IMG/VR virus record: IMGVR_UViG_2802429240_000010 | Strand: one strand, 5' to 3' | Origin: a virus | Lineage: Duplodnaviria > Heunggongvirae > Uroviricota > Caudoviricetes | Length of the DNA stretch: 32,334 nucleotides | Shown here: positions 5,113 through 26,791 of the stretch, in pieces | How the letters are laid out: every line of letters starts with the position of its first letter | Position numbering within the stretch: position 1 is the stretch's first letter | Notes under the pieces: model-generated | Databases searched by the model: none | The model's input: only the letters and a program-made list of their open reading frames with translations | Told to the model about the DNA's origin: nothing | Translations under genes and position numbers: made by a program

Positions 5113-6303
5113 TTAATTGCTGTTAACCGAGGTGACCAGATTTGCCAGGTATTTATCGGTAATACGCTGGCGCAGGGTCAGGTTTTCGAGAGGAGGCACC
5201 GGGGTATAGTCGTAGTCGATATACAGTTTTCCGGCCTTGAGGGTTTCCGCATCGTTGGATTCTTCGCTGAACCAGCAGGTCGCATCCACGATATAGCCGT
5301 TTGTTTTCAGCTCACGGAATTTGGCATTGATGCCGTCAACGATGTCGCGAATCAGCGTTGCGGTGATGGGCTTGTCCACCGCCCACATGTGCGCCTCAGC
5401 CATCGTGTCGGCCAGCACCTGCGCGGTGCGGGTGTAGTTTTCAAAGAGGAACAGCGGGTCATCAGAGCAGGTACGGTTACCCCAGAAGCGGAAACCGTCA
5501 CGGCGAATCAGCGTTGTGACGCCTGACTCATTCAGCAGGTCAGCATCGGTGCCGGACTCCTGCAAATCCCAGAATACAGATGCGCTGATGCCGGTAACAC
5601 CGTTCACCCCAACGTTGGACAGTGTTTTATGCCAGCCCTGCTCCTGGTCGATTTTAGCGCGCAGACCCAGCGCACGGGCGGTGGCATACGCGGTGGCGGT
5701 GGTACTGGTGACCGTATCCCATGCGAGGAAATCCGGCCAGATGACCATCAGCTCACGCTGGCTGAAATTCTGGCGGTAGGCTTTCACCTCGGAAATAGTT
5801 TTACAGCCCCATGCGCTGATATACCCGAAAGCGCGCAGCTTCTGACAGACTGATGCCAGTGCAACAGCCACCTCTTTGGTGTCCAGTCCCGGCACGCCGA
5901 GAATACGCGGTTTAACACCGGTTACCGACTCCGCCGCCAGCAGGGCTTTCAGTCCGGTGTACTGACCGTTTTCGTCGGTAGTGCCGATGATATTGGAAAC
6001 GGTCTGCGCGAGTTTCGTTTCCTCGTCGTCGCCGGTGCCGTCTTCCACACGCACGACAACGGTGACCGGTTTTGACTGGTCGGCGATGGCCTGCAACGAT
6101 GCCGCCAGCGTGCCTTTTTTACCGGCCTTTGCAATTGCGCTCTGCACATTGGTAATCAGTACAGGTTTATTGAGGGGGAAGGTTTCCGCATCCGCATCGC
6201 TGGCCGTGCAGACCATGCCGACAATGGCAGTGGATACGGTGGAAATGACGCGGGTGCCGTCGTTAATCTCCAGCACCTGCACGCCGTGATGATAGTCACT
6301 CAT
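5113..6303 (-). CDS. FI: Contractile tail sheath protein (P2 gpFI-like), 396 aa
   Basis: 396 aa as in P2 FI; conserved sheath sequence; precedes FII by 12 bp. Confidence 0.9.
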   Translation of the reverse strand: MSDYHHGVQVLEINDGTRVISTVSTAIVGMVCTASDADAETFPLNKPVLITNVQSAIAKAGKKGTLAASLQAIADQSKPVTVVVRVEDGTGDDEETKLAQTVSNIIGTTDENGQYTGLKALLAAESVTGVKPRILGVPGLDTKEVAVALASVCQKLRAFGYISAWGCKTISEVKAYRQNFSQRELMVIWPDFLAWDTVTSTTATAYATARALGLRAKIDQEQGWHKTLSNVGVNGVTGISASVFWDLQESGTDADLLNESGVTTLIRRDGFRFWGNRTCSDDPLFLFENYTRTAQVLADTMAEAHMWAVDKPITATLIRDIVDGINAKFRELKTNGYIVDATCWFSEESNDAETLKAGKLYIDYDYTPVPPLENLTLRQRITDKYLANLVTSVNSN

Positions 6304-6525
6304 CCGTTTAACTCCGTGGTTAATGGGTGAGTGGTATTTTCATGTGTGCCGGAGATGTCAGGCTATTTGTCCCGGTTGGCTGAGGGATGGCACAATTTAT
6401 TCTTTGTCGCTGATGAGGCGAATTTTTTATAGAGCGTGGACAGGTCAATATCAAAAATCAGCGCCACACGTTGACGTGATTCCCTCGCAGCCAGCAATCG
6501 TCCTGCCTGTTCCCACACAGTCGAT

Positions 6526-6570
6526 TATCTGGAGCACTGGAACTTGTCGAAATTTCCAGTGCTCCAGATA
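6526..6570. promoter_or_regulatory. Perfect 15-bp inverted repeat with 15-nt spacer in the G-FI intergenic region; candidate stem-loop, terminator or protein-binding site
   Basis: tatctggagcactgg (6526-6540) is the exact reverse complement of ccagtgctccagata (6556-6570); it lies just downstream of the G stop; no U-tract follows on either strand. Confidence 0.4.
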
Positions 6571-6579
6571 TTGAATGGC

Positions 6580-7182
6580 CTACGCCTCCGGCAGTTCAGG
6601 CCAGATAACATCCGGCGCTGTGCTGGTATCTGTTGCTGTCACCGCGTCAATGTAATCCAGCACAGCGTTAAGCCGGGTTGTTTCTGTTTGCGTCAGTTTG
6701 CGCCCGGCCTGCAATTTCAACTGAATCAGACTAATGGAAGCCATTGCGGCATCAATCAGCGACTGGCGCTGTGTTTCTGCCGTCTCTACTGCGACGTGAT
6801 GTTGCTCCTCAGTATCTGTCACCCATTTCTCACCATCCCATTTATCGTATGGCGTTAACGGGGCGATAGTGGTTGTATTTTCAGGGTAATCACCCGGAGT
6901 TTTAATTTCTTTTGATTCCCCTGTTTCGGTGCTATAGACAATTTCACCACGATGGTCTGATACATATTCCCATGATTTTAAATCCACAGAACGGCAAATT
7001 GTATAACCAGCCTTATGTGTGCCAGGAGCGTCTAAACAGGAATATGCCGGAATACCGACACCCACAGCAAGATATTCAGTTGATGCAGAAATATATTCCC
7101 GCGTCTCACTGTCATAGTTGTAAACGATAATGTTTCCTTCCTGCACGGCAATAAGTTCATTATTTAATACCGCGTGATTCAT
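6580..7182 (-). CDS. G: Tail fibre assembly protein (P2 gpG / Tfa-like), 200 aa
   Basis: Sits immediately downstream of the tail fibre gene; start shares a base with the H stop; acidic N-terminal half and Tfa-like C-terminal region. Confidence 0.75.
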   Translation of the reverse strand: MNHAVLNNELIAVQEGNIIVYNYDSETREYISASTEYLAVGVGIPAYSCLDAPGTHKAGYTICRSVDLKSWEYVSDHRGEIVYSTETGESKEIKTPGDYPENTTTIAPLTPYDKWDGEKWVTDTEEQHHVAVETAETQRQSLIDAAMASISLIQLKLQAGRKLTQTETTRLNAVLDYIDAVTATDTSTAPDVIWPELPEA

Positions 7183-17501: not shown

Positions 17502-19274
17502 ATGACCATCACCACAGACACCACTCTTTTGCACGACCCGCGTCGTCAGGCGGCGCTGCTGTACTGGCAGGGGTTTTCCGTGCCGCAGATTGCCGCCATG
17601 TTGCAGATGAAACGCCCGACGGTGCAGAGCTGGAAACAGCGCGACGGCTGGGACAGCGTTGCCCCCATCAGCCGTGTCGAAATGAGTCTGGAAGCGCGGC
17701 TGACCCAGCTCATCATCAAACCGCAGAAAACCGGCGGTGACTTCAAGGAAATTGACCTGCTGGGACGCCAGATTGAACGACTGGCACGGGTCAACCGTTA
17801 CAGTCAGACCGGCAACGAGGCAGACCTTAATCCGAACGTCGCTAACCGCAACAAAGGCGGGCGCCGCAAACCGAAAAAGAATTTTTTCAGCGACGAAGCC
17901 ATCGAAAAGCTGGAGCAGATTTTCTTTGAGCAGTCTTTCGAATATCAGTTGCACTGGTATCGCGCCGGGCTTGAGCACCGCATCCGCGATATCCTGAAAT
18001 CCCGCCAGATTGGCGCAACGTTTTATTTTTCCCGCGAGGCGCTGCTGCGCGCCCTGAAAACCGGCCATAACCAGATTTTTCTGTCGGCCAGTAAAACGCA
18101 GGCGTATGTGTTCCGCGAATACATCATCGCCTTTGCCCGTCTGGTTGACGTTGACCTGACCGGTGACCCGATTGTCCTGGGCAATAACGGCGCAAAACTG
18201 ATTTTTCTCGGCACCAACTCCAACACCGCGCAGAGCCATAACGGCGACCTGTACGTCGATGAGATTTTCTGGATCCCGAATTTTCAGGTACTGCGTAAGG
18301 TGGCATCAGGTATGGCCTCACAGAGTCACCTGCGTTCGACCTATTTCTCCACCCCGTCCACGCTGGCGCACGACGCCTACCCGTTCTGGTCGGGTGAACT
18401 GTTTAACCGGGGACGCGCCAGCGCCGCTGAACGCGTGGAAATCGACGTCAGTCATAACGCACTTGCCGGAGGTCTTCTCTGTGCGGACGGCCAGTGGCGG
18501 CAGATTGTCACCATTGAGGACGCCCTGAAAGGCGGCTGCACGCTGTTCGACATTGAGCAGCTCAAACGCGAAAATAGCGCCGACGATTTTAAAAACCTGT
18601 TCATGTGTGAATTTGTTGACGACAAGGCGTCGGTGTTCCCGTTCGAGGAGCTGCAACGCTGCATGGTCGACACGCTGGAAGAATGGGAAGACTATGCGCC
18701 GTTTGTCGCGAATCCGTTCGGCTCCCGCCCGGTATGGATTGGTTACGACCCGTCACACCGTGGCGACAGCGCCGGATGCGTGGTACTGGCACCGCCGGTG
18801 GTGGCCGGTGGCAAATTCAGAATACTTGAGCGTCACCAGTGGAAAGGCATGGACTTTGCCACTCAGGCGGAATCCATCCGCAAACTCACCGAAAAATACA
18901 ACGTCGAATACATCGGTATTGATGCCACCGGCCTCGGTGTCGGCGTGTTCCAGCTCGTGCGCTCGTTCTATCCCGCCGCGCGCGACATCCGCTACACGCC
19001 GGAAATGAAAACCGCAATGGTGCTCAAGGCAAAAGACGTTATCCGTCGTGGCTGTCTGGAATATGACGTCAGCGCCACCGACATCACCAGCTCGTTTATG
19101 GCTATCCGCAAGACCATGACCAGCAGCGGACGCAGCGCCACCTATGAGGCCAGCCGCAGCGAGGAAGCCAGCCACGCCGACCTCGCCTGGGCGACCATGC
19201 ACGCCCTGTTAAATGAGCCACTCACCGCCGGTATCAGCACCCCGCTGACATCCACCATTCTGGAGTTTTACTGA
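17502..19274 (+). CDS. P: Terminase large (ATPase) subunit (P2 gpP-like), 590 aa
   Basis: From ATG 17502 (MTITTDTTLLHDPRRQ) the protein is 590 aa as in P2 gpP; the track ORF begins 10 codons earlier. Confidence 0.9.
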   Translation: MTITTDTTLLHDPRRQAALLYWQGFSVPQIAAMLQMKRPTVQSWKQRDGWDSVAPISRVEMSLEARLTQLIIKPQKTGGDFKEIDLLGRQIERLARVNRYSQTGNEADLNPNVANRNKGGRRKPKKNFFSDEAIEKLEQIFFEQSFEYQLHWYRAGLEHRIRDILKSRQIGATFYFSREALLRALKTGHNQIFLSASKTQAYVFREYIIAFARLVDVDLTGDPIVLGNNGAKLIFLGTNSNTAQSHNGDLYVDEIFWIPNFQVLRKVASGMASQSHLRSTYFSTPSTLAHDAYPFWSGELFNRGRASAAERVEIDVSHNALAGGLLCADGQWRQIVTIEDALKGGCTLFDIEQLKRENSADDFKNLFMCEFVDDKASVFPFEELQRCMVDTLEEWEDYAPFVANPFGSRPVWIGYDPSHRGDSAGCVVLAPPVVAGGKFRILERHQWKGMDFATQAESIRKLTEKYNVEYIGIDATGLGVGVFQLVRSFYPAARDIRYTPEMKTAMVLKAKDVIRRGCLEYDVSATDITSSFMAIRKTMTSSGRSATYEASRSEEASHADLAWATMHALLNEPLTAGISTPLTSTILEFY

Positions 19275-20308
19275 TGAGCAAGAAAAAAGGGAAAACACCG
19301 CAACCTGCGGCAAAAACAATGACCGCCAGCGCCCCGAAAATGGAGGCATTCACCTTTGGTGAGCCGGTGCCGGTACTCGACCGCCGTGACATTCTGGATT
19401 ACGTCGAGTGCATCAGTAACGGCAGATGGTATGAGCCACCGGTCAGCTTTACCGGTCTGGCAAAAAGCCTGCGTGCTGCCGTGCATCACAGCTCACCGAT
19501 TTACGTCAAACGTAATATTCTGGCCTCGACATTTATCCCGCATCCGTGGCTTTCCCAGCAGGATTTCAGCCGCTTTGTGCTGGATTTTCTGGTGTTCGGT
19601 AATGCGTTTCTGGAAAAGCGTTACAGCACCACCGGTAAGGTCATCAGACTGGAAACCTCACCGGCAAAATATACCCGCCGTGGCGTGGAGGAGGATGTTT
19701 ACTGGTGGGTGCCGTCCTTCAACGAGCCGACACCTTTCGCGCCCGGCTCCGTGTTTCACCTGCTGGAGCCGGATATTAATCAGGAGCTGTACGGTCTGCC
19801 GGAATATCTCAGCGCCCTTAACTCTGCGTGGCTGAATGAATCAGCCACGCTGTTCCGCCGCAAGTATTATGAAAACGGCGCACATGCCGGATACATCATG
19901 TATGTCACCGATGCCGTGCAGGATCGCAACGATATCGAAATGCTCCGCGAAAACATGGTCAAGTCAAAAGGCCGCAACAACTTTAAAAACCTGTTTCTCT
20001 ATGCACCGCAGGGAAAGCCAGACGGCATCAAAATTATCCCGCTCAGTGAAGTGGCAACGAAGGACGATTTTTTTAATATCAAAAAAGCCAGCTCCGCTGA
20101 CCTGCTGGACGCGCACCGCATCCCCTTTCAGTTGATGGGTGGCAAGCCGGAGAACGTCGGGTCGCTGGGTGATATTGAGAAAGTGGCAAAGGTCTTTGTC
20201 CGCAATGAGCTTATCCCGTTACAGGACAGGATTCGGGAAATAAACGGCTGGCTCGGTCAGGAGGTCATCCGCTTTAAAAACTACTCACTGGACACTGACA
20301 ACGGCTGA
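19274..20308 (+). CDS. Q: Portal protein (P2 gpQ-like), 344 aa
   Basis: 344 aa as in P2 gpQ; start overlaps the P stop (ATGA); the cos site follows. Confidence 0.9.
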   Translation: MSKKKGKTPQPAAKTMTASAPKMEAFTFGEPVPVLDRRDILDYVECISNGRWYEPPVSFTGLAKSLRAAVHHSSPIYVKRNILASTFIPHPWLSQQDFSRFVLDFLVFGNAFLEKRYSTTGKVIRLETSPAKYTRRGVEEDVYWWVPSFNEPTPFAPGSVFHLLEPDINQELYGLPEYLSALNSAWLNESATLFRRKYYENGAHAGYIMYVTDAVQDRNDIEMLRENMVKSKGRNNFKNLFLYAPQGKPDGIKIIPLSEVATKDDFFNIKKASSADLLDAHRIPFQLMGGKPENVGSLGDIEKVAKVFVRNELIPLQDRIREINGWLGQEVIRFKNYSLDTDNG

Positions 20309-20313
20309 ACATC

Positions 20314-20335
20314 GCCGCCTGCGGGCGGCTTTTTT
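20314..20335 (+). terminator. Rho-independent terminator downstream of Q
   Basis: gccgcc-tgcg-ggcggc hairpin (6-bp GC stem) followed by a run of 6 T, starting 6 nt after the Q stop. Confidence 0.6.
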
Positions 20336-20477
20336 ACACCCCGTCATCACGCCCTCACACACTCACCACCGCACAAAACAGCCCGCAGACACACCAACGC
20401 CCCGGCGCACAATCTAAACGCCATTACGACGTGCTGAGACGCTGAAAAAATAAAATCAGCACCACCGCCAGCGCGCA

Positions 20478-20496
20478 GTGCTTTCCCCGCCTCGCC
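20478..20496. other. cos: P2-type cos site (19-nt cohesive end sequence)
   Basis: gtgctttccccgcctcgcc is the exact reverse complement of the P2 cohesive end GGCGAGGCGGGGAAAGCAC as I recall it; it lies just past Q, as in P2. Confidence 0.85.
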
Positions 20497-20547
20497 CGCC
20501 CGCTTCGTGGGGCGGTTTTAATGCAGGTGCATTTAAGCCTCTAACCC

Positions 20548-20576
20548 TTGCATGTAAAGGACTTGTGGGATTAAAT
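20548..20576 (+). promoter_or_regulatory. Candidate sigma70 promoter for the DUF262-HEPN cargo operon
   Basis: TTGCAT (20548-20553), 17-bp spacer, TTAAAT (20571-20576); AAGGAG ribosome-binding site at 20627-20632, 7 nt before ATG 20640. Confidence 0.4.
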
Positions 20577-20639
20577 CAGTATAAAACTACGCATGCAAAC
20601 AAATGCAACTTATTGCAAATAAGCATAAGGAGAAAACAA

Positions 20640-21764
20640 ATGGCAAGAGTCCCAAGACAACCTGAACAAGTGATCACAGAAGAAGATAAAGTTGACCTGG
20701 ATAACCAGATCAAATCCATGCAAAAAATAACGGATCACCAAATTAGAGAGTTTCCTGTAAGTGTCATTGTTGACAAATTTCAGAAAGGATTAGAAACCGA
20801 CCAAGCAGAACTATACATACCTGATTATCAAAGGGAATTTGTTTGGAGCAATGTTCAAAAATCAAGATTCATTGAATCTCTTTTGCTAAATATTCCTATC
20901 CCATATGTATTTGTCGCCGATATCGGAAATGACGATGGGCGATTGGAAATCGTTGATGGTAGCCAGAGGATTAGAACACTTTATCATTTCCTAAATGATA
21001 AATTTACCCTTACTGGATTAAAAAAGCTAACTTCAGCCAACGGATTCAAATACTCTGACTTCACACCTGCACGTAAGCTTAGATTCGATAGAAAAACTAT
21101 TCGAATGATTGAACTCACTGAATTATGTGATGAAGAAGCAAGAAGGGAGATTTTCGATCGATTGAATACAGGTGGAATAAAACTCACGACAATGGAGCAA
21201 CGACAGGGCAGTAATGATGGGCCTTTTCTTGATGTTGTTAATAGACTATCAGAGTTTCCATTGTTTAGGGAAATATGCCCTCTAAACGATGCTAGGATCA
21301 GTCGTGGAGAATATCCAGAATTGGTTCTTAGATATTTTGCCTATTGTGATAACTATCTTAACTTTGAAAAAAGTGTTGATACTTTCTTAACCCAATATCT
21401 TGACCAACGCAATGAGTCATTTAGTCCTGAGCAAGAAGAAAAACTAACTGCACAATTTCAAGATATGTGTGAATTTGTCAAAACATATTTCCCCTATGGT
21501 TTCAGAAAGAATGCAACGGCAAACACTGTACCAAGAATTCGCTTTGAAGCGTTAGCTGTCGGTTCCACTTTGGCCTTAAAAACTGACTCTAACATAATAC
21601 CAACACCGGTAGAGGAATGGTTAAACTCAGAAGAGTTTATTAAACATACAAGATCTGATGCATCAAATTCAAAACCTAAAGTAAAAGCACGTATTGAATA
21701 TGTAAGAGACAAACTTTTAGGTGTGCAGACCGAAGATACTGTTCTAGATGATAGTGAGGAGTAA
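20640..21764 (+). CDS. DUF262 / ParB-like nuclease-domain protein (GmrSD-like N-terminal domain, no HNH/DUF1524 domain), 374 aa
   Basis: Strong ribosome-binding site and ATG at 20640. Contains DUF262 hallmark motifs IPDYQREFVW and EIVDGSQRIRT. The ~170-aa C-terminal part has no HNH motif I can see. The gene is AT-rich compared with the phage backbone. The track ORF start at 20478 lies inside cos and is an artefact. Confidence 0.75.
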   Translation: MARVPRQPEQVITEEDKVDLDNQIKSMQKITDHQIREFPVSVIVDKFQKGLETDQAELYIPDYQREFVWSNVQKSRFIESLLLNIPIPYVFVADIGNDDGRLEIVDGSQRIRTLYHFLNDKFTLTGLKKLTSANGFKYSDFTPARKLRFDRKTIRMIELTELCDEEARREIFDRLNTGGIKLTTMEQRQGSNDGPFLDVVNRLSEFPLFREICPLNDARISRGEYPELVLRYFAYCDNYLNFEKSVDTFLTQYLDQRNESFSPEQEEKLTAQFQDMCEFVKTYFPYGFRKNATANTVPRIRFEALAVGSTLALKTDSNIIPTPVEEWLNSEEFIKHTRSDASNSKPKVKARIEYVRDKLLGVQTEDTVLDDSEE

Positions 21765-21770
21765 CTATCC

Positions 21771-22502
21771 GTGGTCATCATGAACAGCAAAATTTTATTT
21801 TCTGAAAGAAAAGAAGATATAGAAAAATATTTTGATTTTGTTAAATTCATTATTGATGAGAGACCAACATTCTCGTACAAAGATCGCATAGCAGGCGAAT
21901 GTAAACACCGCGAAATTGATATCGAAATGACGCATATCCTAAAAGCCAATGCGTTTATTATATTATATAACTTAATTGAAGCCACTATATCTAATGCTAT
22001 TGAAGATATACATAATGAACTTAATTCGTGTGATGATCTTTGTGTCGATAAAATTTGCGAAAGTTTAACAAAGCTTGCCTTAAAAAAATTAGACCATCAT
22101 ATGGTGAGTGACATGGATTTTTCACAAGGTGATATAGCAAAACTAGTTCTAAAAAAATGGCTAGAGGAACACAAAAAACAAGTTCAAGCAGATAAAAACC
22201 CCCTATTTTCTGGAAATGTTGACGCACAGAAAATTAGGGATGTTGCTAGTATCTATGGTTTTTCCTCTCAAACAGATCGTTCAAAAACTCATAATGGTGG
22301 AAATTTAGTAAACATAAAAAAAGCAAGAAATGCATTGGCGCATGGTTCAGAATCCTTTTTAAACAAGGGTCAAGAAACGTCTATTGACAACCTTGAACTT
22401 CTTAAAAATGAAGTTTTCCATTACCTAGAAGAAATACTAGAAAACATACAAAAATACCTTGATGATCGCTTATACATACGATCATCAAGACTACAGGCTT
22501 AA
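21771..22502 (+). CDS. Putative HEPN-domain protein (Rx4H motif; MAE_28990/Swt1-like or Abi-like), ~243 aa
   Basis: Starts 7 nt after the upstream stop. GTG at 21771 has a GAGGAG ribosome-binding site 10 nt upstream; the alternative ATG at 21780 has none. Predicted alpha-helical protein with C-terminal KKARNALAHG (Rx4H). AT-rich. Confidence 0.6.
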   Translation: MVIMNSKILFSERKEDIEKYFDFVKFIIDERPTFSYKDRIAGECKHREIDIEMTHILKANAFIILYNLIEATISNAIEDIHNELNSCDDLCVDKICESLTKLALKKLDHHMVSDMDFSQGDIAKLVLKKWLEEHKKQVQADKNPLFSGNVDAQKIRDVASIYGFSSQTDRSKTHNGGNLVNIKKARNALAHGSESFLNKGQETSIDNLELLKNEVFHYLEEILENIQKYLDDRLYIRSSRLQA

Positions 22503-23536
22503 ACTATATTGTGCTCTTTTAGGTGAGTTATAATTGACTCACCTATAACCTCACCTAGTTTTACCGGTACAGCATTACCAATCATCCTACCAACATTCTT
22601 TATAGATACTTTCTCATTGGGTGCAGTAAAAACGTAATCCTTTGGAAACGTTTGTAACAATGCAGCCTCTCTCAGAGAAATTGCACGATTTTGCTCGGGA
22701 TGACCAAATCTGCCATTTCCAAAACCATAACATAGCGTAGTAATTGTAGGACTTGGTTTATCCCAATCCATACGTCCATATACACTAGCATAACCTTGCC
22801 CACTTTTCTTTATGTGGCATGATGCAATCAACTCTACTGGCCAGTCTCGCCATGTCCCTCCTGGTTTAGAGCAAGCAATACGTTTTAGATTTATATCACT
22901 TAATTTACTTGCTTTATGTAAAGGATCAACAGGATCCGTTTGACCAGCCTTTAATGGAGGAAGTCCGCCAATGCATTCTTTTACCGTCACCGCCTTTTCT
23001 ACTTTTGGTTTTACAAATGAAAGCGGCGCAAATTTAGATGCCAATAATACATGCCTAACTCTATTTTGCGGAACACCATAATCTACACATTCAACCTTTC
23101 CGGCCCAGACATGATAACCCAATGCCTCTAAACTATTATAGAAGTCACTATAAACAGAATGCTTCGTTACATCAGGTACATTTTCCATTGTAACGATCTC
23201 TGGATTAACCCCTCGAATTAAACGTTCAAATTCATAAAGAAGAGGCCACTTTTTATCATTTTTCTTATCGCGCCCTTGCGTATACCTTGAAAAAGGTTGG
23301 CACGGCGCACAACCAGCCAACACCCTTACCTGCGCACCTTCAAAAAGATCGTTAAGCTCGTCTTTGGTCACCAGAGAAATATCTTTTTCAATAAAAAGCG
23401 CACTGTTATTACTTTCATAAGCAGCCCGGCATGCACTCTCTATATCAATACCAGCGACTACATCTAATCCGGCTTGCTTTAAGCCATGAGTAAGCCCGCC
23501 AGCACCACAAAAAAGATCAACAACTTTTACCGCCAT
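22499..23536 (-). CDS. DNA (cytosine-5)-methyltransferase, 345 aa
   Basis: Motif I DLFCGAGG, motif IV GCAPCQPFS (catalytic Pro-Cys), motif VI ENV, motif VIII QNRVR, motif X GNAVPV. ATG at 23536 has a GGAGA ribosome-binding site; an upstream in-frame ATG at 23626 is possible. Its stop overlaps the stop of the convergent HEPN gene. Confidence 0.85.
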   Translation of the reverse strand: MAVKVVDLFCGAGGLTHGLKQAGLDVVAGIDIESACRAAYESNNSALFIEKDISLVTKDELNDLFEGAQVRVLAGCAPCQPFSRYTQGRDKKNDKKWPLLYEFERLIRGVNPEIVTMENVPDVTKHSVYSDFYNSLEALGYHVWAGKVECVDYGVPQNRVRHVLLASKFAPLSFVKPKVEKAVTVKECIGGLPPLKAGQTDPVDPLHKASKLSDINLKRIACSKPGGTWRDWPVELIASCHIKKSGQGYASVYGRMDWDKPSPTITTLCYGFGNGRFGHPEQNRAISLREAALLQTFPKDYVFTAPNEKVSIKNVGRMIGNAVPVKLGEVIGESIITHLKEHNIV

Positions 23537-23841
23537 TTTAGTCTCCGATTCATCCTCCGACAGAGTATAACTGTATCCTTCAAAAATCTCGAGCGTTTTA
23601 GCAAACAACAAGAATGCTCCCCACATCCAGCCCTAAGGCCTTATCCTAGCCTAGCTTTACTACAATTAATCCAACAATTTCTGTAAATACATCCATTCCC
23701 TCTCGTAACCGAATACTCTCAACATCCTTTCCACTAATGTACTGTTTTAAATGACTTTAACTTTACATAACTAACGCCTCGCTTCGCTCGTTGTTCAACC
23801 CCGCCAGCCCTGAAAACAAGTTTCACGACTGGCGGCGTTCT

Positions 23842-24048
23842 CTATCGTCTGCGTGGTGGTGGCGTAACTCTTGATTGACCGATATGATTAAACCGCCCGT
23901 AATTATCCCGGACTATTTCGGCACACCCGACCAGCTCATCGGGCGTCAGATTTTCGTTGACCATAATCCGCTGTAAACGCTGAACAATGGCCATCAGCTT
24001 GATATTTTTAGTTTTATGGTGCGGTATCTCGCCTGGTATTCTGTGCAT
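23842..24048 (-). CDS. Hypothetical small protein, 68 aa
   Basis: ATG at 24048 shares a base with the stop of the upstream ASCH gene, suggesting translational coupling; no recognisable motif. Confidence 0.4.
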   Translation of the reverse strand: MHRIPGEIPHHKTKNIKLMAIVQRLQRIMVNENLTPDELVGCAEIVRDNYGRFNHIGQSRVTPPPRRR

Positions 24049-24500
24049 TATCCAAGCCACCCGTTTTGCTTTGCATGCTCCATCTGTTCATCTGAATAAT
24101 TCCATATCCCATCCGTGGCAACCATTGCCCCACCAGACATCCCTGTCTCTGGTTCATACATAACAGCAAGGCCAAGCTGATGCATAATTTCATGATTAAT
24201 TCTGAATACCAGACCACGTTCACTAAGTTCTTTCCAGTTCACAATCTTATATGCGCCCGTATTAAGCAGCTCAATACTTAGCAAGACATAATCTTCCAGC
24301 CAGTCTGACAGGTCAGTAACATCTGTTATCCGGGCTTCAACCTTGCGCCCCGTAAACACACCCTGCACCCATTCATGCAAAATCAACGTGTCCCCGCGCT
24401 CATAATTACGGTCATTTTTCCGAAACTCTGCGCGTTTCTTTCCTTCCAGTACAAGGTCGAAATATTTTGCGTGCAGCTTTACCTCGTGAATTTTTGCCAT
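24048..24500 (-). CDS. ASCH-domain protein with a C-terminal extension carrying an HExxH motif, 150 aa
   Basis: ATG at 24500 shares a base with the A stop. N-terminus has the ASCH GxKxxExR signature (EGKKRAEFR). C-terminal tail contains HEIMH. Sits where P2 has orf91, directly after A. Confidence 0.65.
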   Translation of the reverse strand: MAKIHEVKLHAKYFDLVLEGKKRAEFRKNDRNYERGDTLILHEWVQGVFTGRKVEARITDVTDLSDWLEDYVLLSIELLNTGAYKIVNWKELSERGLVFRINHEIMHQLGLAVMYEPETGMSGGAMVATDGIWNYSDEQMEHAKQNGWLG

Positions 24501-26791
24501 TATGTCCACTCCATTACTGTTGAGAATCCCGGCCACTCATCAGCGACCGGATACGTGAATTTTTTCCCGTCATAATTTACAGTCGCGCCACGCGCCAGCG
24601 CCTCAAGCTCCCATCGCTGAGGCCTGATACCGTTCTGAGCAAGGTCAACGCGGATACGGGTGATTTGCATTCGTTCCGACCGGGTCAGTCTGGCCGATGG
24701 TGCAATTTCATGTGGTTTTAACGGGCTTCCGTTTCTTTGCTGACGACTTGGCGTTCTCCGACCGTGTTTTAATGCACCCCTGAGCGCCCTCACGACCTCC
24801 GGGTCATTCCATTCGATAACACCGTCATCAACCAGATTAAGCACTGCTGCAACGTGCTCAGAAGGTGTGGGAGCCGGTAACGAAGTATCACTACCGGTGA
24901 GCTTTCCACAGTTATTGACAGGACTCCGAGGCGCGGCGATGCCGCTTTTTAAAGTCAAAGGCTCAACGACCGGAACTTTCGGCACAATGCGCCAGTCCGT
25001 CGTTCTGGTGATATGAATATGACGCGCGCCGAGATGCGGCGCGTAAATGCCGACCACTCTCTCGACTTCTTCCTCGTACTCGTTAACGTCATCCGACGGG
25101 CTACGGGCAACCCTGACAGTCTGACAATCGCGCGGGACATTTGCCCCACCCTGCGCGCTGATATACAACGCAAAATCACCACTGTCTGCGGCAGCGCGAG
25201 CAGCCTCGACGCGTTCGTCAAACTCATCAGCAATGCTGACGCCGCTAGGCAATTTGCGTAGTTCACGGTAAGCCCCCATTGTCGGCAGGCCAACCGTTTT
25301 AAATTGTGGAATACGCCACGTTGACGCCCATGCGGTAACAGCCGCTGCAGTATCTTTCAGCGGCCTGCCGGTATCGTTATCGAGCTGACCATCCAGTGCA
25401 TAGCCGTCGATGTTTTTTGAGATGTATTTCGCGATATACCCCGCAGCACCGCCCCGGTTAAGATGTTTTGCCTGAAAACGGTTTCGCGCGGCTCCTCTTT
25501 CGTCGCCATCCTCTTTGAGCGCATAGCGACGCATGATTTCGATAATCTGGTTACGCTGGCGTGGATTACAAAAAAGCATCATATGCCAGTGCGGCGTTCC
25601 GTCGTGGTGTGGCTCGACGACTCGCAAACCGTAGACCTGTAAATCATTATCCTTGAATGCCGTGCGCATCAGGCTCCAGATACGGCAAAGATAACGCTGC
25701 GCATCCTTTGGATTAAATGCCTCATCGTTCCAGCCGTGATTAAGCTGAACGGTTTTACTTTCGCCTTTTCCGACCTGACGTGTCGGGTGATACTTTGACG
25801 GCGCGGTCAGCGTGATAAACATCCCCACATCACCCTCTGCGGCGGCGTAACGCTCAATACCGGCAATGGTGTTCATCAGCTCCATCCGGCGAATTTCAGG
25901 ATTAGAAATACTGCCCATCACCTTACTGATAAGGTCGATGCGTTCGCCGGTTTCCCTGTTTTCGAGGTCACACGATTTAAGAAATTCCAGATTTGCCTGG
26001 CGGCGTGCACGTACATCACGAATGGCATGTTTACTGGCATAAGGAGAACGGTCTTTATTCACCGCCCCGACAGCAATCAGTAACGCCTCATGCCAGCGCA
26101 TACGCTGGCCTTTAAGCTGATGAGTCCACCACTCATCGTTAAACAGACGGGCAATGGCAGAATATGCCCGCCTCGTGGTCATCTGTCCTTTACGGTATTT
26201 TTTCCAGTAGAGCGGGGAAATATTGAAAGCACGTGCAGCGCCAGCAACATGACCATAGAGGTGAGCCTGCGCCTCATCCGTAAACAGCGATTCTTTTTCG
26301 CCATGCGCATCCACCCAGGCATCGCTGAGTTCCTCATACATCATGAAAAGCTGCGATGAGATACGGACGGCAAATTTTTTCAGCTCCTTGTCATTCATTC
26401 CCGGCAGGCGTGCATACTGGTCGCGCTCTGCCAGAAACAGCAACGACGCGTCGGTGTTCATTTCATGGCGCTGATTCACGCGCTCAATGCGCGGCCATAA
26501 ACGACGCTGAAAAGTGGATGTGAGGAAATAAAACCCGTGTAGCGGACTTTTATTGCGCCGGATGTAGTCATAGCGTGAAGTAAACAGCGAGCGCAAAAAG
26601 TAAGGCAGGCGGTTAATCGTGGATAAAACACCTTGCACCTGACGCATCTCGTCACGTGTAAGGGTTCTTTCGCGCCCGACGGCCTCGCGTGGCGCGTTCC
26701 ATGCATAAGCACCGGTAAACGCCTTACCGGTGCCTGCAGCAAATGCTGACGGAGGTACGCAGGTGTATTGCTCCTGGAAAGAATGACTCAT
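24500..26791 (-). CDS. A: Replication initiation endonuclease (P2 gpA-like, rolling-circle), 763 aa
   Basis: Near full-length match to P2 gpA as I recall it (VPPSAFAAGTGK...FTYPVADEWPGFSTVMEWT); size ~761 aa. Confidence 0.9.
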   Translation of the reverse strand: MSHSFQEQYTCVPPSAFAAGTGKAFTGAYAWNAPREAVGRERTLTRDEMRQVQGVLSTINRLPYFLRSLFTSRYDYIRRNKSPLHGFYFLTSTFQRRLWPRIERVNQRHEMNTDASLLFLAERDQYARLPGMNDKELKKFAVRISSQLFMMYEELSDAWVDAHGEKESLFTDEAQAHLYGHVAGAARAFNISPLYWKKYRKGQMTTRRAYSAIARLFNDEWWTHQLKGQRMRWHEALLIAVGAVNKDRSPYASKHAIRDVRARRQANLEFLKSCDLENRETGERIDLISKVMGSISNPEIRRMELMNTIAGIERYAAAEGDVGMFITLTAPSKYHPTRQVGKGESKTVQLNHGWNDEAFNPKDAQRYLCRIWSLMRTAFKDNDLQVYGLRVVEPHHDGTPHWHMMLFCNPRQRNQIIEIMRRYALKEDGDERGAARNRFQAKHLNRGGAAGYIAKYISKNIDGYALDGQLDNDTGRPLKDTAAAVTAWASTWRIPQFKTVGLPTMGAYRELRKLPSGVSIADEFDERVEAARAAADSGDFALYISAQGGANVPRDCQTVRVARSPSDDVNEYEEEVERVVGIYAPHLGARHIHITRTTDWRIVPKVPVVEPLTLKSGIAAPRSPVNNCGKLTGSDTSLPAPTPSEHVAAVLNLVDDGVIEWNDPEVVRALRGALKHGRRTPSRQQRNGSPLKPHEIAPSARLTRSERMQITRIRVDLAQNGIRPQRWELEALARGATVNYDGKKFTYPVADEWPGFSTVMEWT

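Follow-up and report, generated by a model that had tools for sequence, protein, structure and literature searches.

A three-gene DUF262–HEPN–methyltransferase cassette in the old/tin hotspot of a P2-like prophage, a possible restriction–modification-like immune system with a ribonuclease effector

The stretch of DNA analysed here (hereafter the window; 32,334 nucleotides, IMG/VR virus record IMGVR_UViG_2802429240_000010) is a P2-like prophage genome with the gene order D ... P, Q, cos, cargo, A ... C, int. Its structural half (1–20500) is 96–97% identical to P2-like coliphages across 89–96% of its length, and the region of the replication gene A shows 96.1% identity to P2 (blastn). Between cos and A lies an AT-rich cargo island that carries three genes, encoding a DUF262 protein, a HEPN protein and a C5 DNA cytosine methyltransferase (hereafter the methylase). 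Gene starts within the cargo were taken from the RefSeq annotation of a 99% identical prophage, and the features of the island are as follows.

20533–23768: AT-rich cargo island, 3,236 bp, recognised by low GC content and homology breakpoints
20533–20639, plus strand: leader and putative promoter region of the DUF262–HEPN operon, in the orientation of the P2 old-tin transcript, which begins beside cos
20640–21764, plus strand: DUF262/ParB-like NTPase of 374 residues with a C-terminal helical domain, NsnA-like; proposed DNA sensor
21780–22502, plus strand: MAE_28990-family HEPN protein of 240 residues (alternative GTG start at 21771); proposed ribonuclease (RNase) effector
22456–22491, minus strand: candidate terminator, a hairpin (14 pairs) with a T-rich tail 3′ of the methylase stop and inside the HEPN 3′ end (consensus match only)
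22499–23536, minus strand: C5 DNA cytosine methyltransferase of 345 residues, convergent with the HEPN gene and overlapping it by 4 nt
23537–23768, minus strand: AT-rich stretch 5′ of the methylase, probable site of its own promoter

The sole Pfam match of the DUF262 protein is GmrSD_N (DUF262; 7e-29), and the three motifs of this domain are kept (QREFVW, DGSQR, which is of the DGxQR type, and FDRLN). Among the PADLOC models, the best match was NsnA of the Menshen system (5.4e-56, model positions 34–377 of 385), followed below it by PD-T4-2_A (4.3e-34, residues 61–354 of the protein), and the 'REase_II' (Type II restriction enzyme) model matched the DUF262 domain only (2.5e-8). The fold is nearest to those of BrxU and SspE. 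Beyond the ParB/DUF262 NTPase fold, no nuclease domain was recognised in this protein, and a Pfam search for PD-(D/E)XK, HNH, GIY-YIG and PLD domains found none in the cargo proteins. The family to which it belongs is a large one, comprising 4,546 clusters at E<=1e-5. An AAGGAG at 20627–20632 stands 7 nt 5′ of the ATG, and just 5′ of this ribosome-binding site we observed ATGCAA/TTGCAA repeats at 20592–20618 (GCATGCAAACAAATGCAACTTATTGCAAAT), which may represent an operator or regulatory site of the cassette.

The HEPN protein matches Pfam HEPN_MAE_28990 (PF18737, 1e-19) and has an intact RxxxxH motif (RNALAH at residues 183–188) that is invariant in 38 homologues. Its AlphaFold model is of high predicted confidence (pLDDT 92.5), the HEPN fold was confirmed, and the nearest structural neighbours are the HEPN toxins of HEPN-MNT systems; in contrast to these toxin–antitoxin systems, the window has no adjacent nucleotidyltransferase gene and the partner genes differ. 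None of the PADLOC models matched the window HEPN even at E<=10, nor did any match the HEPN proteins of the other alleles in the P2 slot described below at E<=0.001.

The methylase is matched by Pfam DNA_methylase (PF00145, 6e-55) and by TIGR00675 dcm (2e-37), with motifs I, IV, VI, VIII and X intact (FCGAG at residue 9, PCQ at 78, ENV at 118, QNRVR at 157 and GNAVP at 320). Its start is ambiguous, as an in-frame ATG at 23626 adds 30 residues and is used by one database entry (P0189, 375 residues); homologues of 340–348 residues and the RefSeq annotation favour the start at 23536. The best conserved part of the protein is the segment between motifs VIII and IX (residues ~211–300, including the target-recognition part), with a conservation of 0.66–0.93 across 44 loci. 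The nearest solved enzyme, M.HaeIII, aligns to the N-terminal catalytic part only (3e-20), and no homologue with a name revealing the target sequence was found. The stretch at 23537–23768 lies downstream of the conserved early-operon hairpin, which suggests a separate methylase promoter. A promoter-like TCGAGA-17-TATACT is present at 23592–23564, its 9/12 matches being no better than chance, and a consensus promoter scan was uninformative overall, with none of its sites falling in 20533–20639. Searches for an RNA antitoxin or other non-coding RNA in the 305-nt gap (23537–23841) or elsewhere in the region gave no Rfam match at E<=1, and neither tRNA genes nor meaningful tandem repeats were found in the cargo region.

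The island differs strongly in composition from the surrounding backbone. In sliding windows, the GC content dropped from 0.55 (20000–20499) to 0.32–0.38 (20500–22750), rose to 0.40–0.42 (22500–23750) and was at least 0.50 from ~24250 onwards. Over its full length the island has a GC content of 0.370 compared to 0.535 in the remaining window (z = -4.3), and equal-length windows elsewhere had a minimum of 0.444, a mean of 0.540 and a standard deviation of 0.040. Similarly, the GC content at third codon positions (GC3) is 0.277, 0.232 and 0.275 in the three island genes versus 0.711 in P, 0.641 in Q and 0.539 in A, with an overall backbone range of 0.46–0.71. An original prediction for this region had described it as markedly AT-rich with differing codon usage; both measures set the island apart from its flanks, and the prediction, which a GC content like that of the flanks would have contradicted, is thereby sustained. 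The segment is a compositionally foreign, horizontally acquired cargo island.

Its limits were set by homology breakpoints. Using blastn, we placed the left breakpoint at 20525–20532, where homology to P2 stops at 20525 and homology to a frequent E. coli prophage type (L005) at 20532; the right breakpoint falls at 23769 relative to Wphi and the common E. coli prophages (L005), and at 24280 relative to P2. The features flanking the island are listed here.

19274–20308: Q, portal gene
20479–20497: cos, 19-nt cohesive end and left landmark of the slot, reading GTGCTTTCCCCGCCTCGCC
20496–20532, plus strand: conserved flank after cos that contains a GC-rich hairpin and a T run (terminator-like site at 20496–20515)
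23769–24500, minus strand: right flank, common to many P2-like phages and partly to P2
~23797–23835: hairpin region within the right flank
23845–24048, minus strand: orf92-like gene (annotation of the near-identical prophage L001)
24048–24500, minus strand: orf91-like gene with DUF3850/ASCH and DUF7415 (Pfam matches)
24500–26791: A, replication gene

The cos sequence corresponds, in reverse complement, to the cohesive end that the P2 record NC_001895 has annotated at its right end, and it aligns to the cosR end of that genome inside a 48-nt match of 95.8% identity. Given cos at 20479–20497, the earlier placement of the start 'just right of cos' was exact, and the interval originally proposed for the island (20497–23841) proved a good approximation, extending ~36 nt too far to the left and 73 nt too far to the right. 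The same alignments agree with the proposed conserved backbone on both sides, formed by cos and Q on the left and by the A-operon genes on the right. The absence of direct or inverted repeats flanking the island led us to reject a transposon or integron-type insertion, and exchange of the cargo by recombination within the conserved flanks appears more likely. On its right side the slot ends at different places, as orf91 and orf92 are present or absent among phages: the P24B2-type and Shigella-type alleles lack both and adjoin gene A directly. The two genes, whose GC content is intermediate in the window (0.45–0.48), form a second variable layer.

Alignment against P2 and other P2-like prophages also revealed what else occupies the slot. 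P2 holds orf91, tin, old and cos at this position, in Wphi the place is taken by orf91, orf92, a C5 methylase and a further two genes, which are unrelated, and the frequent E. coli prophage type (L005) carries two genes without recognised domains. The DUF262–HEPN operon shares the orientation of old-tin, reading away from cos, but the cargo of the window is unrelated to old, which encodes an OLD-family ATPase-nuclease, and to tin. In a census of 5,426 complete E. coli genomes, the flanks were matched in 2,157, only 4 of which contain the cargo of the window (96–99.5% identity; strain 5735, NZ_CP154887, is an example of a natural lysogen); a ~78% identical version is present in 3 further E. coli genomes and in phage P24B2. 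The locus between the portal and replication-endonuclease genes corresponds to a published P2 defence hotspot, also called 'P2 defence hotspot #1' (Rousset et al. 2022, PMC9122126; Vassallo et al. 2022, PMC9519451); the main texts of these two papers mention no DUF262 or methylase-linked system at the P2 hotspot. The predicted replacement of old/tin by three genes that P2 lacks thus agrees with the alignments, as does the notion of a swappable slot with shared flanks and unrelated contents, and the rarity of the cargo among flank-bearing genomes speaks against its being a core part of the lineage. The variable content, the foreign composition and the known hotspot together support the reading of the region as a swappable defence slot.

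We then asked in which other genomes these genes occur. A HEPN-profile search restricted to one genome per species returned 443 relatives, the best 79 loci of which were examined. DUF262 is encoded immediately 5′ of the HEPN gene in essentially all 79 loci, and 44 of them have an orthologous C5 methylase next to the pair, convergent and downstream in 42 and upstream in 2. These orthologues score E 1e-115 to 1e-197, whereas the methylase of Wphi, which is unrelated, scores 3e-19. Most hosts are Cyanobacteria, and Bacteroidota, Gammaproteobacteria and others are represented too, with Buttiauxella, Kluyvera, Thalassotalea, Cytophagales and Beggiatoa-like bacteria among the hosts. The pairwise identities of the three proteins correlate across 40 loci (r = 0.85–0.94, uncorrected for shared phylogeny). 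All five distant DUF262 homologues that we looked up carry the same trio, in the settings below, and Moraxella phage Mcat32 holds it as well.

Pseudomonas protegens: carried within a Tn7-like element; the trio has a GHKL-ATPase gene in addition
Deinococcus: defence island, beside AIPR and OLD-like genes
Shewanella: adjoining an MvaI/BcnI restriction–modification (R-M) system
Polaromonas: plasmid
Snodgrassella: prophage, directly after the CI repressor gene

Within the P2 slot itself, a third allele of the module is carried by Shigella and E. coli prophages (>750 contigs and 9 complete E. coli genomes), so that at least three diverged alleles share the slot, in 4, 3 and 9 of the 5,426 E. coli genomes. 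The three alleles are 71–81% identical in the methylase, 45–70% in the DUF262 protein and 30–60% in the HEPN protein, suggesting that sensor and effector diversify fast while the methylase stays constant. Together with the strong conservation of the methylase segment that includes the target-recognition part, this points to a fixed methylation specificity. Taken together, gene order, orthology and co-divergence show that the trio forms a single conserved module, mobile across many settings and inherited together, rather than independent cargo genes. A two-gene form exists as well, the methylase being a frequent, co-evolving partner and not a universal one.

Several copies deviate from this arrangement. 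The extra gene of the Tn7-like copy in Pseudomonas (L085, 6978–8927) encodes a HATPase_c_3 (GHKL) protein and lies between HEPN and methylase. In Deinococcus, a small gene that matches HTH_3 faintly (L087, 7898–8146) is located directly 5′ of the methylase and resembles an R-M controller protein. In the P24B2 record (L002) the methylase is split into two open reading frames (ORFs), and the related E. coli copy is intact. A C-terminal motif of the DUF262 protein, SDASNS[RK]PKV (residues 339–348; window 21654–21683), has N343 in 41/41 methylase-linked loci and in only 3/17 methylase-less loci, where it usually reads SDASSS.NKV, a difference that is confounded with clade; the motif might be a part that reads methylation or contacts a partner.

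We next compared the cassette with known systems. The PADLOC v2 models do not cover a DUF262–HEPN–methylase module. The closest description is one line of a computational table (Anantharaman et al. 2013, PMC3710099, Table 1), which lists an operon of MAE_28990 HEPN, ParB nuclease and DNA methylase; with the same HEPN family, the Rx4-6H motif, the same two partners and the same predicted R-M-like context, the cassette is a member of this operon type. There, ParB was taken for the DNase and HEPN for a suicide RNase in reserve. The carriage by P2-like phages, the co-divergence and the allele series are added here.

PD-T4-2 of E. coli ECOR65 is a DUF262 and HEPN pair that protects against T4 in its native strain and also as a cloned system (Vassallo et al. 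2022, PMC9519451). The window shares its gene order, DUF262 followed by HEPN, and its PD-T4-2_A model; however, the two ORFs of PD-T4-2 span 1,540 bp compared to 1,863 bp here, which implies a much smaller HEPN in PD-T4-2, and the cloned system has no methylase, in contrast to the linked C5 methylase of the cassette. Membership was rejected on these grounds and because no PADLOC model, including that of the second PD-T4-2 gene, matches the HEPN protein. Menshen consists of NsnA, the proposed sensor, NsnB and NsnC (Millman et al. 2022; Li et al. 2025, PMC12065111). The DUF262 protein has the ParB-DUF262 plus ParBDB architecture of NsnA, but the NsnB ABC-ATPase and NsnC (inactive PIN plus nuclease) are replaced in the window by HEPN and methylase; an NsnB-type ABC/OLD ATPase was not found in the island with Pfam, PADLOC or NCBIfam, and with NsnB and NsnC absent the cassette was not assigned to Menshen. 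With GmrSD, BrxU and SspE, the protein shares the N-terminal DUF262 NTPase domain with its DGxQR motif, yet at 374 residues versus 560–600 it lacks their DUF1524 His-Me nuclease, for which reason it was not placed among them; the effector in the window is instead a separate RNase-type protein, and the predicted modification is 5-methylcytosine (5mC) rather than phosphorothioate. As for classical type II R-M, the C5 methyltransferase motifs are present, no partner with a recognised endonuclease fold was found with Pfam, and among the PADLOC models the only restriction-enzyme match is that of REase_II to the DUF262 domain; the ParB-like domain could conceivably have DNase activity.

These comparisons suggest that the cassette is an immune system, R-M-like in its organization and with an RNase as effector, housed in the old/tin hotspot, an interpretation to which we assign roughly even chances. 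In the model that we favour, the methylase would be expressed from its own promoter and would set 5mC on one fixed short motif throughout the lysogen chromosome and the prophage, thereby providing a self mark. The nuclease-less DUF262 protein would examine DNA through NTP binding or hydrolysis, respond to unmarked incoming DNA and activate the HEPN protein, whose gene follows immediately in the shared operon. The latter would then cut RNA (tRNA, rRNA or mRNA) and halt translation, so that infection is aborted or the phage is starved. For the prophage, the cassette would represent a lysogenic-conversion function, as old and tin do in P2. For protection of the lysogen against other phages the support is indirect and comes from the domain content and the defence-island neighbours. 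Precedents for parts of this scheme are available: the DUF262 domain of GmrSD, BrxU and SspE serves as NTPase or sensor in control of a nuclease, with SspE reading a self modification (PMC12065111, PMC10952713), and the anti-T4 activity of PD-T4-2 indicates that a DUF262 and HEPN pair is able to defend E. coli. Tentatively, and with somewhat less than even confidence, the broader family, with the cassette as its E. coli/P2 representative, may constitute a widespread, unnamed form of methylation-gated RNase immunity, in which a 5mC self mark of fixed specificity is combined with a nuclease-less DUF262 reader and with HEPN as the sole effector.

A number of observations weigh against this model. 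Defence, the methylated motif, the cleavage of RNA by HEPN and the way in which methylation is read are all inferred, and our literature searches on MAE_28990 and on DUF262 with HEPN and methyltransferase returned only the 2013 computational paper and general reviews, and no experiment. PD-T4-2 works in the absence of any methylase, and GmrSD and BrxU attack modified DNA (PMC10952713, PMC12707154), which is the opposite polarity. The co-divergence statistics (r = 0.85–0.94) carry no correction for shared phylogeny, and the promoter scan, with 10 sites compared to 11 expected by chance, gives separate promoters no support. Furthermore, the methylase is absent in 32 of the 79 loci despite sufficient flanking sequence. 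Half of these (16/32, mostly Microcoleus) have a truncated DUF262, and the other half (16/32) have a full-length DUF262 which, like the accompanying HEPN, retains intact catalytic motifs; barring methylation in trans, such intact pairs imply that DUF262–HEPN need not be lethal when no methylase is linked to it. Most of the methylase-less loci belong to one clade and are neighboured mostly by housekeeping genes; an IncF plasmid carries the DUF262–HEPN pair followed by an insertion sequence (IS) fragment, and in two cyanobacterial loci (L046, 7707–8732; L049) the C5 enzyme is replaced by an N6/N4 methylase. The Microcoleus loci L037, L047, L048, L053, L068, L073, L074, L076, L079 and L080, with an intact HEPN, a DUF262 ORF of ~190 residues and no methylase, look like decaying copies, or like cases in which HEPN was kept for another use.

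The same genes could also be read as a layered system, in which the DUF262/ParB protein is a DNase with the methylase as its cognate partner, and HEPN is a PrrC-like latent RNase that the R-M proteins keep inactive and that is freed only when a phage neutralises restriction. This is the published reading of HEPN genes in R-M operons, including the MAE_28990 operon (PMC3710099); the PADLOC match of the Type II restriction enzyme model is in line with it, and the linkage of the methylase fits it equally well. We nevertheless regard it as doubtful, given that no recognised DNase domain or motif is present beyond the ParB/DUF262 NTPase fold and that in the studied relatives DUF1524 is the part that cleaves while DUF262 acts as NTPase or sensor (PMC10952713). 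In addition, HEPN is retained in every locus, including those that lack the methylase, and it thus looks like a core effector rather than an accessory.

Two further explanations treat the methylase differently. According to one of them, the slot holds two independent cargos, namely a type IV-like DUF262–HEPN pair that senses modified phage DNA (e.g. hydroxymethylcytosine or its glucosylated form) and an orphan anti-restriction methylase. Orphan methylases are common in phages, and a different C5 methylase is found in the same slot of Wphi. PD-T4-2, which acts on T4 and needs no methylase, the existence of methylase-less pairs and the targeting of modified cytosines by the DUF262 proteins GmrSD and BrxU (PMC10952713, PMC12707154) all point the same way. 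This explanation is however hard to reconcile with an orthologous, mostly convergent methylase that stays linked across phyla in chromosomes, plasmids, transposons and unrelated prophages, with r up to 0.94, as an anti-restriction methylase has no reason for linkage outside phages; moreover, a methylase making 5mC beside a modification-dependent sensor would risk self-attack, and we consider two independent cargos improbable. R-M systems are known to behave as addiction modules, and the genetic logic of the cassette is alike, so that DUF262–HEPN could chiefly be a toxin and the methylase its antidote, stabilising the prophage or other mobile elements with defence at most a side effect. The many mobile elements that carry the module and its retention in degraded P2 remnants at Shigella-type loci (L097) would agree with such a role. 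Against it stand the location of the module in defence islands beside abortive infection (Abi), OLD-like and R-M genes, the anti-phage nature of the known occupants of the P2 slot, and the intact methylase-less pairs, which oppose constitutive toxicity. Addiction as the main function therefore seems very unlikely, and it is in any case compatible with the immune model and not exclusive of it.

The hotspot itself was already known, and it is the occupant that is of interest. The module joins epigenetic self-marking, as in R-M, with RNase-based abortive defence of the HEPN type, two fields that are usually studied apart, and if the immune model is true it would amount to an 'RNA-cutting restriction–modification system' whose RNase is governed by the methylation state of DNA. 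The window and the 99% identical E. coli prophages place it in a tractable phage–host pair, and the allele series of the P2 slot, with a constant methylase and a fast-evolving sensor and effector, offers a natural experiment on arms-race evolution.

Two further observations concern variable positions of P2-like phages. The second P2 defence hotspot (Z/fun position, 6304–6579), bounded by the tail sheath gene FI (5113–6303) and the tail fibre assembly gene G (6580–7182), measures only ~276 bp and is empty in this phage. Wphi (L004, 3420–6590) has the same slot architecture as the window, with its C5 methylase convergent with gp96 and gp98. It was considered as a relative and set aside, since its methylase shares only 28% identity with that of the window, and neither gp96 nor gp98 matches a Pfam domain or the DUF262 and HEPN profiles; the Wphi methylase together with gp96 and gp98 may represent another methylase-linked system.

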